DNA of 44,651 bases from Gammaproteobacteria bacterium (GTDB lineage: Bacteria; Pseudomonadota; Gammaproteobacteria; JAKDMP01): assembly GCA_030452225.1 (NCBI GenBank), contig JAKDMP010000002.1:1-44651 (forward strand), given 5' to 3'. Each line of letters opens with the position of its first letter. Within the stretch, counting starts at the first letter, position 1. Both the position numbers and the translations under genes were made by a program. Positions 1,524 through 6,181 of the stretch are shown here, in pieces. Below the pieces are notes generated by a model, which searched no databases, had not been told where the DNA came from, and saw only the letters and a list, made by a program, of their open reading frames with translations.

Positions 1524-2204
1524 TCAATTCTCCCTTGGAGCCGGCGGCATCGAGGCGCGCTCGGCGATCAGTTCAGGGCCTTCGCGGGCAGGGTTTTTGG
1601 CGGCGTCGCTCACGTGCCGGCTTTCGAGGATTTCGCCGAAGGCCGGAGGGGCAAACTGCTGCAATGCCTCCCGTCCGGACAGATCGGGATCGAGCCAGGC
1701 GCGGGCGCTGCCGGTCGGAATCATCACCGGCGAGCGGTCGTGGATTCGGGCGACCGGCCCGGCGGGAGCGCCGGTCAGGATCGCGAAGCCTTCGTCTCCC
1801 ACAATGCCGCCGAAAAAGAGCGGGCTTCCGTCGCGCGGTTGAAAGAAGTACCACGAGCGGCTTTTCCGGGTCTTCGGCCCCTTGGGCTCGTAGAAGCCGC
1901 TGGCGAAGACGACACAGCGGCGGCGGTCGAAGAGGGGGCGGTATTCGGCCACCCGATGGGCGGATTCGCTGCGTACGTTGATGCGGTTGCCGCGGCGGGT
2001 GGGGAAGGCCCACATCCACTCGCTCACCGCAGGCATGCCTTCGGCGTCGACAGTGGCCATCCAGGTCCGAGTGCCCGGTGCGATGTTGTAGCGGGGCGCT
2101 TCGGCCCGGGCGCCGAATCGAGTGAACAGATCGGAACCCGCCGTCATGTCCAGCGGCTCGAGCCACTCGGAAAGCGGCTGGTAGCGTGCAAACCGTCCGC
2201 ACAT
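1524..2204 (-). CDS. SOS response-associated peptidase (SRAP; YedK/HMCES family)
   Basis: The N-terminus MCGRFA carries the catalytic Cys2. NIAPG, FFFGGI-like and HDRSPV(M) blocks are typical of SRAP. The stop is 3 nt from the next gene's ATG. Confidence 0.9.
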   Translation of the reverse strand: MCGRFARYQPLSEWLEPLDMTAGSDLFTRFGARAEAPRYNIAPGTRTWMATVDAEGMPAVSEWMWAFPTRRGNRINVRSESAHRVAEYRPLFDRRRCVVFASGFYEPKGPKTRKSRSWYFFQPRDGSPLFFGGIVGDEGFAILTGAPAGPVARIHDRSPVMIPTGSARAWLDPDLSGREALQQFAPPAFGEILESRHVSDAAKNPAREGPELIAERASMPPAPREN

Positions 2205-2214
2205 GATCCGTGCC

Positions 2215-2640
2215 TTACCCGGTTTGGCTTGCGCTTCCGGCCAGCCAGCGCGTCATGGCGTCCTTCGGGTTCAGCGCCCGCCCGTCTTTTTCCCCCTCAA
2301 TCAAGGCAGAGTCCCCCGTGACAAGGCAGGCCTTGGGGTCGGCGGCCAGCAAGGCCCAGAGATGAGCATCGCCGGGATCGGGAGCGGCCTGGGCGGCCGG
2401 TGGAGGATCCAGGACAAGGGCGTGTGACAATATGGCCTCGAGAACGGCTTCAACGTTCACGGTTGCCATCCCCGCTTTGCGTTGCAGTACCACGCGATAT
2501 TCTGCCAGCAAATCTGTCGAGACCACAACGGATTCGGTGCCCTCGAGAAGTATGCGTAGCCATCGAACTGTCGGACTGGATTCCCGTTGTGCCAGAAACC
2601 CCGCCACCAGCACGCTGGTGTCAACGATGTAGTGCCTCAT
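2215..2640 (-). CDS. PIN-domain toxin (VapC-like) of a type II TA pair
   Basis: MRHYIVDTSVLV carries the N-terminal PIN Asp and CLVTGDSAL the C-terminal acidic motif. The start overlaps the upstream RHH gene stop by 4 nt (ATGA). Confidence 0.8.
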   Translation of the reverse strand: MRHYIVDTSVLVAGFLAQRESSPTVRWLRILLEGTESVVVSTDLLAEYRVVLQRKAGMATVNVEAVLEAILSHALVLDPPPAAQAAPDPGDAHLWALLAADPKACLVTGDSALIEGEKDGRALNPKDAMTRWLAGSASQTG

Positions 2641-2873
2641 TCGCTGCGAACTTCGCGCGTTACGCGAACGCCGAAGGCCAGCGCATCGGCTTCGGAGAGC
2701 GTCGCATTGGCACGCAGCCGTTCCATCAATCCCTCGACTTCGGATTCTGTTCGCACGCCATTGAGTCTCAGGCTTTCGTCAACAAGCTGGGCTATCGTTA
2801 ATCCGCGCCGGGCCGCTGTCGCCTTGAGCGCCCGCCGCCGTTCCTCCGGGACTTCAACGGTCAGTTTTGACAT
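2637..2873 (-). CDS. ribbon-helix-helix (CopG/Arc-like) antitoxin
   Basis: The 78-aa protein starts MSKLTVEVPEERRRALKATAARRGLTIAQLV, a beta-strand plus helix RHH signature. It overlaps the PIN gene by 4 nt. Confidence 0.75.
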   Translation of the reverse strand: MSKLTVEVPEERRRALKATAARRGLTIAQLVDESLRLNGVRTESEVEGLMERLRANATLSEADALAFGVRVTREVRSE

Positions 2874-2890
2874 GGCTGGATTCCAGTAAA

Positions 2891-2913
2891 TACAGAAAGT
2901 TGTAGTTTCTGTA
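2891..2913 (-). promoter_or_regulatory. perfect inverted repeat TACAGAAA-N7-TTTCTGTA abutting a minus-strand TACAAT -10 (2918..2913); candidate RHH-antitoxin operator and TA promoter
   Basis: The 8-bp arms were read directly. The repeat starts at the last base of the TACAAT hexamer, about 20-40 nt upstream of the RHH ATG (2873). Confidence 0.45.
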
Positions 2914-2924
2914 TTGTATCGCAG
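2909..2924 (+). promoter_or_regulatory. LexA/SOS-box-like sequence CTGTATTGTATCGCAG (CTGT-N8-GCAG; one mismatch to CTGT-N8-ACAG)
   Basis: It lies in the divergent region between the TA operon and the umuD-like gene. It is about 50 nt upstream of the best plus-strand -10 and overlaps the other palindrome, so it may be coincidental. Confidence 0.3.
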
Positions 2925-2956
2925 GCTTCATGCAAGCGGTGAGCGACGCATGAAGC
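2925..2956 (+). promoter_or_regulatory. perfect 9-bp inverted repeat GCTTCATGC-N14-GCATGAAGC over the -35 region of the umuD-like promoter; candidate operator
   Basis: Arms are at 2925-2933 and 2948-2956. It ends 15 nt upstream of an extended -10, TGGTATCAT, at 2971-2979. Confidence 0.4.
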
Positions 2957-3020
2957 AAAAGCGGGCTGCATGGTATCATGATTTTTGTCCCGATATTCAA
3001 AAGGCTGATCCTCCGCACTC

Positions 3021-3590
3021 ATGACCCGGTCTCCATCATCGCACGGCGGGCGTCGTCCCGGCGCCGGGCGGCCCAAGGGCGAGCCGACGGTACGGCTGCG
3101 AGTGCCCACGGGCGTGAAGAGCCGGGTGCGTGCACTGATCGCTGGCTATCGCGCCGATGCCGATAGTAACGCCGTGCCGGTGGCGTCCGATGCGCCGCCG
3201 CGCCGCGTGCCGTATTTCATTGCCAGCGTGCCGGCGGGCTTCCCGTCGCCTGCCGAGCAGTACCTCGAAGAGGCGATCGATCTCAACGTCCACCTGATCC
3301 GCGCCGGCCACGAGGCGGCCACCTACATGATCCGCGTGTCGGGTTCCTCGATGATCGGGGCGGGCATTCACGACGGCGACGAGCTGGTGGTGGATCGCGC
3401 CGAGGAAAAGGTGCTGGGCCGGGTGGTGGTGGCGGTGCACGATGGGGCGATGACCGTCAAGCGGCTGCGCCGGCGCGGCGGCAAGCCGGTACTCGTGGCC
3501 GAGAACCCCGACTATCCCGAGCGGGTGGTCGCCGAGGGCGAGGAGTTCGAGATCTGGGGCGTGGTGACCAAGGTGCTGCACACGCCCTGA
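3021..3590 (+). CDS. umuD: UmuD-like S24 peptidase (Pol V accessory subunit) with an N-terminal basic extension
   Basis: VPAGFPSPAEQY is the Ala-Gly cleavage region. VSGSSMIGAGIHDGD carries the Ser nucleophile and MTVKRL the Lys. The core aligns with E. coli UmuD, but about 50 extra N-terminal residues include GGRRPGAGRPKGE. The start codon is uncertain, since in-frame GTGs lie downstream and there is no strong SD. Confidence 0.85.
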   Translation: MTRSPSSHGGRRPGAGRPKGEPTVRLRVPTGVKSRVRALIAGYRADADSNAVPVASDAPPRRVPYFIASVPAGFPSPAEQYLEEAIDLNVHLIRAGHEAATYMIRVSGSSMIGAGIHDGDELVVDRAEEKVLGRVVVAVHDGAMTVKRLRRRGGKPVLVAENPDYPERVVAEGEEFEIWGVVTKVLHTP

Positions 3591-3649
3591 ACCGGCCCGG
3601 ACTGGCAGGGTTATACTTGGGATTGTGCGGCTCACATTTGAGGCGCGAA

Positions 3650-3847
3650 GTGAAATACCGGATATTGATCGAGCAGGATGAAGACGGCGTGTTCGTGGCG
3701 AGCGTGCCTTCACTTCCCGGCTGCATACCCCAAGGTGACACTCGGGATGAGGCTTTGACCAACGTTCGGGAGGCTATCGAAGCCTATATGGAAAGCCTCG
3801 AAGCGCCACCTTCGATAAACGAAGAAATCGTGGAAATATCCGTGTGA
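3650..3847 (+). CDS. hicB: HicB-family antitoxin (UPF0150, single-domain)
   Basis: VKYRILIEQDEDGVFVASVPSLPGCIPQGDTRDEALTNVREAIEAY is a typical HicB N-domain. A GAGG SD lies 7 nt before the GTG at 3650. The ORF track's TTG at 3617 is an in-frame alternative. The region is visibly A/T-richer than its flanks. Confidence 0.8.
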   Translation: MKYRILIEQDEDGVFVASVPSLPGCIPQGDTRDEALTNVREAIEAYMESLEAPPSINEEIVEISV

Positions 3848-4062
3848 CCCGCTTGCCCGGTATTTCCGGTCGCCAAGCTGTTCAGGTCTTTCAGCGGCTG
3901 GGCCATGAAATTGATCGTCAGCGAGGAAGCCACGTTCATTCCCTTCCACCTCATCGCCGTCTTGTCGTCCCCAATCACCGGGCCGTGGCCAAGGGGACGT
4001 TGAGAGGGCTGATTCGCGAAGCGGGCCTGGCCGTGAATCAATTTACCGAATTATTGAAGTGA
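3844..4062 (+). CDS. hicA: HicA-family mRNA interferase toxin (YcfA-like)
   Basis: Diagnostic motifs are RQRGSHVH...VVPNH...GTLRGLIREAGLAVNQFTELL. The GTG start overlaps the hicB stop (GTGTGA). Confidence 0.85.
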   Translation: MTRLPGISGRQAVQVFQRLGHEIDRQRGSHVHSLPPHRRLVVPNHRAVAKGTLRGLIREAGLAVNQFTELLK

Positions 4063-5381
4063 TGCAATCGGGCGGGATTCCCGAACCAACCGTGCGCCGA
4101 ATTGCCCATATTGACGTCAACGCCTTTTACTGCTCCTGCGAGCGGTTGTTTCGCCCCGACCTGGCCGAGCGGCCGATCGTGGTGCTCTCCAACGGCGACG
4201 GCTGCGTGGTCGCCCGCGATGCCATGGTGAAGCGGCTCGGCGTGCCGATGGGCCAGCCGTGGTTCGAGATGAAGCGCTTTGCCGGGAAGCACGGCATCGT
4301 CGCCTTCAGCAGCAACTACACCTTCTACGGCGACATGAGCCGCCGGGTGATGGATGTGCTCGGCCGGTTCTCACCCGACCAGGAGATCTACAGCATCGAC
4401 GAGAGTTTTCTCGACCTCACCCCGCAGCCGCGGTTGTCCGGCGCGGTCGTGGGGCAGGCCATCCGCGGGCGGGTGCGGCGCTGGACGGGCCTGCCGGTGT
4501 GCGTCGGCATCGGGCGCACGAAGACCGAGGCCAAGCTCGCCGACTGGATCGCCAAGCACGACCCGGCGCTGGGCGGGGTGTGCGATCTTGCCGCGATGAA
4601 CGGGATCGAACGCCGCGACCGGGAGACGGCCATCGAGGTGCGTGAGGTCTGGGGCGTTGGAAGGCGCCTCGCCGAACGCCTGCGCAACCTCGGCATCTTC
4701 ACCGTGGCGGACCTTGCCGCCGCCGACCCGCGGCATTTGCGCGCGCATTTCAGCGTGATGCTGGAGCGTACCGCAAGGGAGCTTCGCGGCGAGGCCTGCC
4801 TGGAGCTGGACGAAGTGCCGCCGCCGCGCCGGCAGATCGTCGCCTCGCGCACCTTCTCCGCGCCGGTGTACACGCCGGGCGAGATGGCCGAAAGCATGCG
4901 CACCTACATGGGCCGCGCCGCGGCGAGGATGCGCGCGCAGGGAAGTGTCGCCGGCGCCGTCGGCGTGTGGATCGAGACGAACCGCTTTCGTACTCATGAA
5001 GCGCAGCACAATGGCTCGGCGACGATTCCGCTCCCCGCGCCCAGCGACGACGAAGCGGTCCTCACCGCCTGGGCCGTGGAACTGATGCGGCGCATTTTCC
5101 GGCCGGGATGTCGCTACTGGAAAAGCGGCGTGATGCTGCTCGACCTCATTCCCAGGGGTAGCGAACAGCGCCTGCTTTTCGATGCGCCGCTGCCCGAGAC
5201 CGAAGCAAGACGCCACCGCGCCATGCAGACGCTGGATGCCGTCAACGGGAAATGGGGTCGCGGCACGCTCGGCCTCGGCAGCGCCGGCCTCCGGGGGCCG
5301 CGCCACTGGAGCATGAAACGCGAACTTCTCTCGCCGCGCTACACGACCTCGTGGCGCGAACTTCCCGTTGCCCGCGCCTGA
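4062..5381 (+). CDS. umuC: Y-family DNA polymerase V catalytic subunit UmuC
   Basis: IAHIDVNAFYCSCERLFRPDLAERPIVVLSNGDGCVVARD aligns with the E. coli UmuC N-terminus. The start is ATG 4062 or GTG 4059, and either overlaps the hicA TGA (4060-4062). Confidence 0.95.
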   Translation: MQSGGIPEPTVRRIAHIDVNAFYCSCERLFRPDLAERPIVVLSNGDGCVVARDAMVKRLGVPMGQPWFEMKRFAGKHGIVAFSSNYTFYGDMSRRVMDVLGRFSPDQEIYSIDESFLDLTPQPRLSGAVVGQAIRGRVRRWTGLPVCVGIGRTKTEAKLADWIAKHDPALGGVCDLAAMNGIERRDRETAIEVREVWGVGRRLAERLRNLGIFTVADLAAADPRHLRAHFSVMLERTARELRGEACLELDEVPPPRRQIVASRTFSAPVYTPGEMAESMRTYMGRAAARMRAQGSVAGAVGVWIETNRFRTHEAQHNGSATIPLPAPSDDEAVLTAWAVELMRRIFRPGCRYWKSGVMLLDLIPRGSEQRLLFDAPLPETEARRHRAMQTLDAVNGKWGRGTLGLGSAGLRGPRHWSMKRELLSPRYTTSWRELPVARA

Positions 5382-5587
5382 TGCGTCATCATTCTTCGTG
5401 ACCGGCCCGGGTGAGGCCATGCCGTGCCGGCTGGTCCGGTTGCCCTGGAGCGGGTGGGACGGTTTTACGGCGATTTTGCGGTATCCTCCCGGGAGGGCAG
5501 GCCCACCCGAGCCCGGGCGCGGCGAGGTTCGCATACGCCCGTCGCCATCCGGATACCGGCGCCACGGTCGCCGCGCAGGAGGAAAAC

Positions 5588-6181
5588 TTGCAGTCACTCG
5601 TTGCCACGCACGGCCTTTACACGGCGGTTTTCTACATCGCCCTCATAGTCTGGGGCATCAACCAGTTGTACGCCAATCGCTACTACTACGCCGCGCCGGG
5701 CCTGGAAGGCCGCAATCGCAGGTCATACTGGTTTTCGGCCGTCATGATTACGGCAGGCATCATCGGCGCGATATTGTGCATGCGGTATGTGCCCGCTACG
5801 ACCTTCCCGTCTGTGCAGCCGGTCATTTTCTGGATCGGCATCGCCCTCATGGCCATGGGGCTTCTCCTTCGCTGGTACGTGATTCGCGTGCTGGCGCGTT
5901 ACTTTGCGCCCGACAAGTCGGTTCGCCCGGACAGGGAAGTCATCGAGAACGGCCCCTTCCGGCAGATCCGCCACCCGGGTTACACGGGCGTCCTGATTAC
6001 GGTGCTGGGTTTCGGGCTGGCCACGACCAACTGGCTCGGCCTGCTCGTTGTGCTCGTCTTTTCCCTCGTCGGCTACGCGTACCGGGTACGGGTGGAGGAG
6101 CAGGTTTTGTGCGAAGCCCTGGGCGATACCTACCGGGAGTACATGCGGCGCACGCGGCGTTTCATCCCGTACCTGTGGTGA
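5588..6181 (+). CDS. isoprenylcysteine carboxyl methyltransferase (ICMT/PEMT) family membrane protein
   Basis: The GPFRQIRHPGYTG...RVEEQVL motif and several TM helices support the call. The TTG at 5588 is preceded by AGGAGG plus 5 nt. The upstream in-frame part of ORF 5411.. is Arg/Gly/Pro-rich and looks non-coding. Confidence 0.8.
   Translation: MQSLVATHGLYTAVFYIALIVWGINQLYANRYYYAAPGLEGRNRRSYWFSAVMITAGIIGAILCMRYVPATTFPSVQPVIFWIGIALMAMGLLLRWYVIRVLARYFAPDKSVRPDREVIENGPFRQIRHPGYTGVLITVLGFGLATTNWLGLLVVLVFSLVGYAYRVRVEEQVLCEALGDTYREYMRRTRRFIPYLW

Follow-up and report, generated by a model that had tools for sequence, protein, structure and literature searches.

Gene content of the locus

The present analysis concerns a gene cluster on contig JAKDMP010000002.1 of a Gammaproteobacteria bacterium (assembly GCA_030452225.1), in which a hicB-hicA toxin-antitoxin pair lies between umuD and umuC, the two genes of DNA polymerase V (Pol V). 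The whole stretch of DNA that was analysed, 44,651 nucleotides (nt) long, is referred to as the window. Positions 3021-5381 hold four intact and tightly packed genes on the plus strand, and open reading frame (ORF) calls and Pfam confirmed them where an earlier note, made from the sequence alone, had placed them. The genes and the short features between and before them are as follows.

2974-3000, plus strand: putative umuD promoter -10 element and UmuDAb-type operator, a pattern conserved in relatives
3021-3590, plus strand: umuD-like gene (Pfam Peptidase_S24, E 3.5e-27, 94.9 bits)
3591-3649, plus strand: spacer of 59 nt from the umuD stop to the hicB start, part of the inserted DNA, with a Shine-Dalgarno (SD) sequence GAGG at 3640-3643
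3650-3847, plus strand: hicB (ORF 3617/3650-3847; Pfam HicB_lk_antitox, E 1.2e-11, 45.3 bits against a cutoff of 27)
3844-4062, plus strand: hicA (Pfam HicA_toxin, PF07927, E 7.4e-12, 45.6 bits against a cutoff of 27)
4059-5381, plus strand: umuC ORF (Pfam IMS 115.9, IMS_C 71.5 and DUF4113 75.7 bits)
4062-4091, plus strand: right end of the inserted DNA, in frame with umuC
4092-5381, plus strand: umuC from its ancestral start GTG 4092, with a product of 429 residues, a Y-family polymerase and Pol V catalytic subunit

The junctions between the four genes were read in the sequence just as the earlier note had described them. The umuD gene stops with TGA at 3588-3590, and the SD sequence lies six bases ahead of the GTG start of hicB at 3650. 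The hicB and hicA genes overlap by 4 nt, as GTGTGA at 3842-3847, with hicA also starting with GTG, and the hicA stop TGA (4060-4062) is overlapped by GTG 4059 and ATG 4062 (TGATG), both of which are possible starts of umuC.

In the search that had been named as a check, both small ORFs matched their Pfam models above the cutoff, and the pair between umuD and umuC is complete. HicB is 65 residues long and its match covers only positions 1-50 of the 123 in the profile; no further Pfam domain was found in it beyond HicB_lk_antitox, and no DNA-binding domain. Its matches in the PDB are the N-domain of a Burkholderia HicB (6G1C/6G1N, residues 1-50) and the 67-residue TTHA1756 (2YZT). A C-terminal ribbon-helix-helix or helix-turn-helix DNA-binding domain, used for autoregulation, is typical of characterised HicB proteins, if not universal. 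Judged by its sequence, the HicB of the window is the toxin-binding N-domain only, and for want of a DNA-binding domain it is not expected to regulate itself by binding DNA. Its GTG start at 3650 aligns with the ATG of hicB in the closest homologous cassette (L078).

HicA is 72 residues long, of which residues 9-62 cover the full PF07927 profile (positions 1-58 of 58). Aligned with 16 homologues, HicA shares with all of them the motif D24-R-Q-R-G-S-H30, in which His30 is the putative catalytic histidine; it is established for HicA toxins that the active-site histidine of the G-x-H motif has a catalytic role. The PxRRL, PxH and GTLRxLI motifs are retained as well. HicA is thus by family an mRNA-interferase-type toxin, and its toxicity is putative. 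Among billions of proteins its cluster (P0001) has one member on one contig, the nearest homologues are 65-69% identical, and a look-up of the exact HicA sequence found no record. The closest hicBA cassettes consist of a 70-residue HicB followed, with a 4-nt overlap, by a HicA of 74-76 residues, and they occur in unrelated contexts, two of them (L250, L253) 66-73 nt downstream of unrelated co-oriented genes and two (L078, L254) after gaps of 270-560 nt. Homology between the cassettes extends over the SD sequence and the two ORFs and nothing beyond.

The umuC product has the architecture IMS, IMS_C and DUF4113, the last being the UmuC-type C-terminal domain, with all three present, and no position that is invariant in 11 diverse UmuC sequences is altered in it. 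Against the UmuC subfamily model of NCBIfam it scored 417.9 bits (E 4.5e-125) where the cutoff is 431, just short of it, and its name under PGAP would be 'Y-family DNA polymerase'.

Evidence for insertion between umuD and umuC

A scan for UmuC in one genome per GTDB species gave 77 loci. In the closest of these, from a Pseudomonadota metagenome-assembled genome (MAG) with 74% UmuC identity (L001) and a Rhodanobacteraceae MAG with 68% (L002), the gene for an SOS-response-associated peptidase (SRAP) is divergent from umuD, and umuC starts at the umuD stop or 2 nt past it. When the window was aligned with both at the DNA level, homology was unbroken to the umuD stop and resumed exactly at the umuC ATG, which corresponds to GTG 4092; a block of some 500 bp, at about 3590-4091, is present in the window only, as a clean indel. 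A protein search found UmuC relatives that are closer still, 75-76% identical (contigs L162-L168). In all of them SRAP on the minus strand is followed by umuD and umuC on the plus strand, the latter two with a 3-nt gap or an overlap and without a toxin-antitoxin pair, and the genes that flank the module vary from contig to contig. Because the module is conserved there in differing surroundings and without hicBA, SRAP-umuD-umuC is, on this comparison of sequences, a conserved module of three genes, with hicBA as a derived acquisition of the window's lineage.

The composition of the DNA points the same way. The GC content is 0.55-0.585 in 200-bp windows over 3600-4199 as against 0.645-0.73 in the flanking umu genes, and at third codon positions (GC3) it is 0.59 in hicB and 0.56 in hicA as against 0.85 in umuD and 0.86 in umuC, which bears out the earlier remark that hicBA is richer in A/T than its flanks. 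It had also been said that umuD and umuC normally abut or overlap and that hicBA is a later insertion. The first statement agrees with the closest relatives and with the survey of gaps given below, and the second is upheld by the abutting or overlapping umuD and umuC of L001, L002 and L162-L168 together with the clean indel and the foreign composition. The recent insertion of a hicB-hicA cassette at the stop/start junction of umuD and umuC is therefore well supported by sequence comparison. Since the foreign codon composition marks the event as recent, intact genes reveal little about selection here. A candidate target-site duplication, CCCTGAACC (3585-3593) with CCC-GAACC (4080-4087), was rejected: an equally good match is seen for 7.7% of position pairs drawn at random in the window, so the flanking repeats are no evidence of transposition.

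Rarity of the arrangement

The distance between umuD and umuC was measured wherever the two genes were co-oriented. It was -7 to 110 nt in the 21 co-oriented pairs found among 157 genome and metagenome loci, and in viral contigs, where 172 pairs were found among 206 unique loci, the median was -1 nt (5th-95th percentiles -10 to 19 nt). In the window 471 nt separate the two genes if umuC starts at ATG 4062, and 501 nt if it starts at GTG 4092. None of the roughly 270 other co-oriented pairs surveyed has a toxin-antitoxin pair between umuD and umuC, and thus the census gave no second example; since the samples were small and biased, the arrangement is called rare, and its absence elsewhere is not claimed. 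The UmuC scans found no relative above 74% identity in genomes or 60% in metagenomes, and none that carries the insertion. No place with all four proteins turned up when a composite tblastn query of UmuD, HicB, HicA and UmuC was run on 72,556 plasmids and 50,697 phage records. At least 80% query coverage was reached in three plasmid records only, where the matches span about 925 bp, too short for four genes, and at no place in the phage records.

Genes of another kind do occur at this position. In three viral lineages (L172, 758-3315; L420, 1684-4290; L460, 1429-4296) we found umuD-cho-umuC operons, whose middle gene codes for excinuclease Cho (NCBIfam NF007833, 306-440 bits) and whose stop and start codons abut or overlap at the junctions, which shows that the umuD/umuC junction tolerates a middle gene. 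On three plasmids umuD and umuC are separated by about 450 bp. On pFA10 of Fulvitalea axinellae (L159, 1914-2318) this is taken up by a co-oriented hypothetical ORF of 134 residues, on pFA12 (L161, 1882-2383) it is an unannotated gap, and on a Pseudarthrobacter plasmid (L160, 1882-2232) there is an ORF of 116 residues on the opposite strand; a Pfam scan of the pFA10 and Pseudarthrobacter ORFs gave no family match.

The author of the earlier note knew of no description of such an arrangement, and a full-text literature search likewise found no published description of a toxin-antitoxin pair inside umuDC. Co-mentions of umuDC and toxin-antitoxin pairs were unrelated where examined, and in a survey of bacterial polymerase neighbourhoods from 2026 SRAP and UmuD are named while toxins are not mentioned.

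The UmuDAb-type UmuD and its putative operator

The first gene of the cluster had been named umuD. The name holds in so far as the product is the S24-type autoproteolytic subunit of Pol V (NCBIfam NF007621, 140.5 bits against a cutoff of 110); it does not hold for the plain UmuD of 139 residues, as the protein is 189 residues long, with an extra N-terminal domain of about 60 residues, and is instead a long UmuD of the UmuDAb type. Its translation shows an Ala72-Gly73 cleavage site, Ser110 (GSSM) and Lys147 (VKRL). In BLASTP it was 38% identical to Acinetobacter UmuDAb over residues 8-186 (E 4e-35), with the match beginning at residue 9 of UmuDAb. The N-terminal motif reads HGGxRxGAGRP...EPT..RVP in the window and HGGxRxxAGR...EPT..RVP across relatives, and the 60 N-terminal residues alone had no match in Pfam. 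The same domain is carried by S24 proteins encoded beside umuC at Mizugakiibacter, Nitrosomonadales, alphaproteobacterial and Actinomarina loci.

Upstream of umuD, a -10-like TATCAT (2974-2979), preceded by TGG, overlaps a putative operator, ATGA-TTTTT-GTCCC-GATAT-TCAA (2978-3000). The window holds a single copy of the pattern WTGA-N5-GTCCC-N5-TCAA. If one mismatch is tolerated, the chance expectation is 0.12 matches, and one or more were seen in 11 of 100 shuffles. The pattern also lies upstream of the umuD-like gene in all six of the six closest loci, and more distant relatives have TTGA-N15-TCAA with other cores, such as GTTAC in L076. The experimentally defined operator of Acinetobacter UmuDAb is TTGA-N4-GTAAC-N4-TCAA (PMC11332147), and this sequence was found upstream of the Acinetobacter UmuDAb gene used here for comparison (L249). 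By analogy with what is known of repression and self-cleavage in UmuDAb (PMC4807011), the product of the first gene probably represses the operon, which would be induced once DNA damage has led to RecA-stimulated self-cleavage of that product.

The UmuDAb-type S24 protein together with an operator of the form TTGA/ATGA-N15-TCAA with a 5-bp core was seen at a number of loci (L001, L004, L010, L028, L037, L047, L056, L076 and L162-L168), and domain and operator type were seen in Xanthomonadales-like, Nitrosomonadales, alphaproteobacterial and Actinomarina loci. UmuDAb has been treated as specific to Acinetobacter or the Moraxellaceae (PMC8565304, PMC4807011). At 113 loci, mostly of Candidatus Actinomarina (within L009-L075 and L084-L158), a UmuDAb-like S24 gene is divergent from umuC and does not lie upstream of it, and the intergenic region shared by the two genes holds a palindrome of the TTGAATA...TATTCTAA type.

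Start and translation of umuC

The close homologues of UmuC are 428-430 residues long and all start at the position of GTG 4092, which is also the start used in the gene call of the source (P0121, 429 residues). A start at GTG 4059 or ATG 4062 would add 10-11 residues that are present in no homologue; from ATG 4062 these read MQSGGIPEPT, and the GC3 of that stretch is 0.60. Neither ATG 4062 nor GTG 4092 has a well-placed SD sequence. In relatives umuC likewise lacks an SD sequence and overlaps the umuD stop, which argues that umuC was ancestrally coupled to umuD. RNA folding was unremarkable at both junctions (z -1.6 for the umuD-hicB leader, and +1.2). The start of umuC is thus ambiguous, ATG 4062 being a candidate only and GTG 4092 the ancestral start. 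The earlier note had coupled umuC to hicA through the overlap of their codons. The overlap is there for the upstream candidate starts only, and the claim does not extend to the conserved GTG 4092, which lies 29 nt past the hicA stop. It is plausible that umuC translation depends on ribosomes arriving from hicA.

Proposed expression of the operon and rival explanations

We think it fairly probable that the locus is a recent hicBA insertion into a UmuDAb-type, damage-inducible operon, now of four genes (umuD-hicB-hicA-umuC), and that the inserted cassette is without a promoter of its own. A consensus scan of 2100-5700, which is crude for an organism of 65% GC, found no sigma-70-like promoter or intrinsic terminator save one hairpin at chance level in vapC, a gene of the neighbouring toxin-antitoxin pair that is dealt with below. 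All four genes would be carried on one mRNA from the umuD promoter, which would be repressed by the long UmuD and derepressed through its RecA-stimulated self-cleavage after DNA damage. The lack of a DNA-binding domain in HicB makes it probable that hicBA relies on the umuD promoter, and HicB and HicA would be made only together with the Pol V subunits, as YafN and YafO are from the dinB promoter in Escherichia coli. Translation of hicA would be coupled to that of hicB through the GTGTGA overlap, and umuC, formerly coupled to umuD, would now rely on ribosomes that end hicA and restart at ATG 4062 or GTG 4092.

Several points weigh against this account. The umuC start that overlaps hicA is not conserved and the ancestral one lies beyond the hicA stop by the 29 nt mentioned, for which reason the coupling of umuC to hicA may be weak. 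A weak promoter is possible in the 59-nt spacer, where there is a -10-like TATACT at 3622-3627, or inside umuD. The left arm of the operator is ATGA in place of TTGA, a form that is also found in L162, L165 and L166. In HicA the beta1-beta2 hairpin, just after GSH, is shorter by 3 residues than in 16 of 16 closest homologues, and the missing residues include a nearly invariant Leu-Arg. Finally, the arrangement is a singleton on one contig, and hence selection for it cannot be shown.

It could be argued that a promoter came with the cassette or arose through its insertion, either within the 59-nt leader or in the 3' end of umuD, in which case hicBA-umuC would be constitutive or follow some other signal, and umuC would be uncoupled from the damage-regulated umuD promoter. 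In E. coli yafNO does have a proximal promoter besides PdinB (PMC2814082), the TATACT precedes the hicB start by 23-28 nt, and the varied contexts of the homologous cassettes (L250, L253, L078, L254) suggest that they are expressed in many settings. Nevertheless, no promoter-like site passes the scan, the TATACT has no neighbouring -35 or extended -10 element, and such a promoter could not be autoregulated by a HicB without a DNA-binding domain. A conserved leader or promoter carried by the cassette was rejected, as the leaders of six homologous cassettes share the SD sequence only. We regard a separate promoter of this kind as unlikely.

A second explanation is that of a dead or dying passenger, with HicA attenuated or inactive, or the insertion polar so that umuC is silenced, or both, and with the locus decaying and no link between toxin and polymerase. 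The shortened hairpin and the loss of its Leu-Arg would fit such a fate, as would the occurrence on a single contig among billions of proteins, the candidate umuC starts without a good SD sequence, and the foreign GC3, which marks a recent event and leaves little time for purifying selection. In opposition to this, all four ORFs are intact, HicA keeps its DRQRGSH, PxRRL, PxH and GTLRxLI motifs and matches its Pfam profile from end to end, and the hairpin is of equal length in 1WHZ, a solved HicA-like protein of Thermus that is also a PDB match of HicA. UmuC, for its part, retains all the columns invariant in the 11 diverse sequences, and no terminator is predicted. Decay of this kind seems quite unlikely to us. 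That the low-GC segment of 500 bp is a chimeric join in a metagenomic contig, as its abrupt GC drop and singleton sequence might suggest, is hardly credible, for the flanks are contiguous in relatives, and two breakpoints about 500 bp apart would have to coincide precisely with a gene junction. Moreover, the insert is made up of two complete ORFs that overlap in register, with an SD sequence, and the module contains another toxin-antitoxin insertion of low GC, 700 bp off and independent of this one.

As to the origin of the promoter-less cassette proposed above, a selfish or neutral hitch-hiking insertion that preserved the polarity of the operon is most likely, rather than an evolved functional partnership. 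A partnership that serves as a checkpoint, promotes persistence or stabilises the locus is possible, if unsupported. The suggestions in the earlier note that the pair would tie an mRNA interferase to the mutagenic SOS response or addictively stabilise Pol V are speculative. In its fullest form, such a proposal would see in the locus a LexA-independent mutagenesis cassette of the UmuDAb type, in which synthesis of the Pol V catalytic subunit depends on translation of the toxin, DNA damage leads to HicA arrest and error-prone synthesis in the same cells as a checkpoint or persistence switch, and vapBC does the same for SRAP; this we hold to be very unlikely.

A second toxin-antitoxin pair and the surroundings of the module

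On the other side of umuD, the window carries the following features.

1524-2204, minus strand: SRAP (Pfam SRAP, E 3.7e-32)
2215-2640, minus strand: VapC-like PIN-domain toxin (Pfam PIN_3, E 6.6e-13)
2637-2873, minus strand: VapB-like ribbon-helix-helix, ParD-like antitoxin (Pfam ParD, E 9.8e-06)
2890-2914 and 2925-2956, unstranded: a pair of perfect inverted repeats between vapB and umuD, found in a palindrome scan

Like hicBA, this vapBC pair (2215-2873, minus strand) is an insertion, here between SRAP and umuD, where relatives have an intergenic region of about 80 nt, and it is absent from all relatives compared. The PIN toxin gene, with a GC3 of 0.68, matched NCBIfam TIGR00305 with 25 bits (E 1.8e-05), under the curated cutoff of 29.15, and the ParD match of the VapB-like protein, at 26.3 bits, is just under its cutoff of 27.3; vapB overlaps the PIN gene by 4 nt. 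Because SRAP begins 10 nt past the vapC stop, it is probably read through from the vapBC promoter. There are thus two toxin-antitoxin pairs in one small module, each directly upstream of a module gene. No other toxin-antitoxin families were found among the ORFs scanned in the 44.6-kb window.

The two inverted repeats, ATACAGAAA-N7-TTTCTGTAT (2890-2914) and GCTTCATGC-N14-GCATGAAGC (2925-2956), have arms of 9 bp each, and the stretch that they span (2890-2956) has no counterpart in relatives. They are probably promoter or operator DNA of vapBC that was brought in by that cassette. The right arm of the first overlaps a LexA-like box, CTGTATTGTATCGCAG (2909-2924), whose CTGT-N8-GCAG resembles CTGT-N8-ACAG. 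This box was rejected as an operator of umuD and deemed coincidental, since it lies partly in the inverted repeat beside vapB, in DNA that the relatives lack.

Nothing seen around the SRAP-umuDC module in the window points to a mobile element. Positions 7836-44651 are ordinary chromosome, with genes for the alpha, beta and gamma subunits of respiratory nitrate reductase, a molybdate ABC transporter, a phosphate-selective porin, molybdenum cofactor synthesis, TamA/TamB and cytochrome c maturation (ccmABCD/F/H). Beside the module, at 197-1520 on the minus strand, there is a class II aminoacyl-tRNA-synthetase-like protein of 304 residues, with a weak match to tRNA-synt_2b below the cutoff (E 0.0012), which adjoins a small phosphopantetheine-binding carrier protein. 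The two possibly form an amino acid-carrier protein ligase.

Comparison with known systems and significance

The dinB-yafN-yafO-yafP operon of E. coli, which the earlier note had cited as a precedent for a toxin-antitoxin pair in a Y-family polymerase operon, is indeed one (PMC2814082). In both cases a type II pair with an mRNA-interferase toxin is co-oriented with the polymerase gene in its operon, which in E. coli is damage-inducible, and the induction of yafNO by mitomycin comes from the upstream dinB promoter (PMC2814082). The toxin families differ, HicA in the window and YafO in E. coli, as does the position of the pair. In the dinB operon it lies downstream of the polymerase gene, whereas in the window it lies between umuD and umuC, with the polymerase gene downstream of the toxin. 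Furthermore, yafNO has its own promoter, autoregulated by YafN, while for hicBA no promoter was detected and HicB lacks a DNA-binding domain; the regulator of the operon in the window is probably the UmuDAb-type protein itself, and not LexA. What is new with regard to the dinB-yafNOP theme is the position between the two Pol V genes and the antitoxin without a DNA-binding domain.

Like the canonical umuDC, rumAB and mucAB operons, the locus has an S24 gene with the Ala-Gly site and the Ser/Lys dyad, followed by a umuC-type gene on the same strand, but here the two are 471-501 nt apart with two extra genes between them, and UmuD has an extra N-terminal domain. It shares with Acinetobacter UmuDAb the N-terminal region and an upstream palindrome with arms of the TTGA/TCAA type and a 5-bp core that overlaps the promoter. 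The arms are 15 nt apart in the window and 13 nt in Acinetobacter, however, and the core is GTCCC in place of GTAAC. In addition, the window has no adjacent gene for the co-repressor ddrR, its divergent neighbour being SRAP, and the UmuDAb-like gene is still the first in a umuC operon, with no separate short umuD at the locus. The likeness to UmuDAb is known from sequence, and the DNA binding and self-cleavage of the protein are predicted.

The pair itself resembles the stand-alone short HicB and HicA proteins (UPF0150), such as Thermus thermophilus TTHA1756 (2YZT) and TTHA1913 (1WHZ), in gene order and in the 4-nt overlap. A HicB of 65-70 residues with the toxin-binding fold only is common to the window, to these stand-alone pairs and to the closest cassettes (L078, L250, L253, L254), but those cassettes lie outside any DNA-damage operon. 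The viral umuD-cho-umuC operons (L172, L420, L460) also have an extra gene exactly at the umuD/umuC junction. There the middle gene is a DNA-repair nuclease that recurs in three lineages, whereas the toxin-antitoxin pair was seen once.

The occurrence of the UmuDAb-type regulator and operator in distant phyla may be of more general value than the hicBA insertion, and the double colonisation of the SRAP-umuDC module by toxin-antitoxin pairs is of note in its own right. The locus illustrates how toxin-antitoxin cassettes without a regulator of their own can spread by settling at gene junctions that are translationally coupled. If the four genes are indeed carried on one damage-inducible mRNA, an mRNA-interferase toxin and an error-prone polymerase would be made from the same message, with the polymerase downstream and possibly dependent on the toxin for its translation. 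This would extend the dinB-yafNO precedent to Pol V, and would provide a simple system in which to ask whether toxin-antitoxin pairs induced by DNA damage modulate mutagenesis or persistence.

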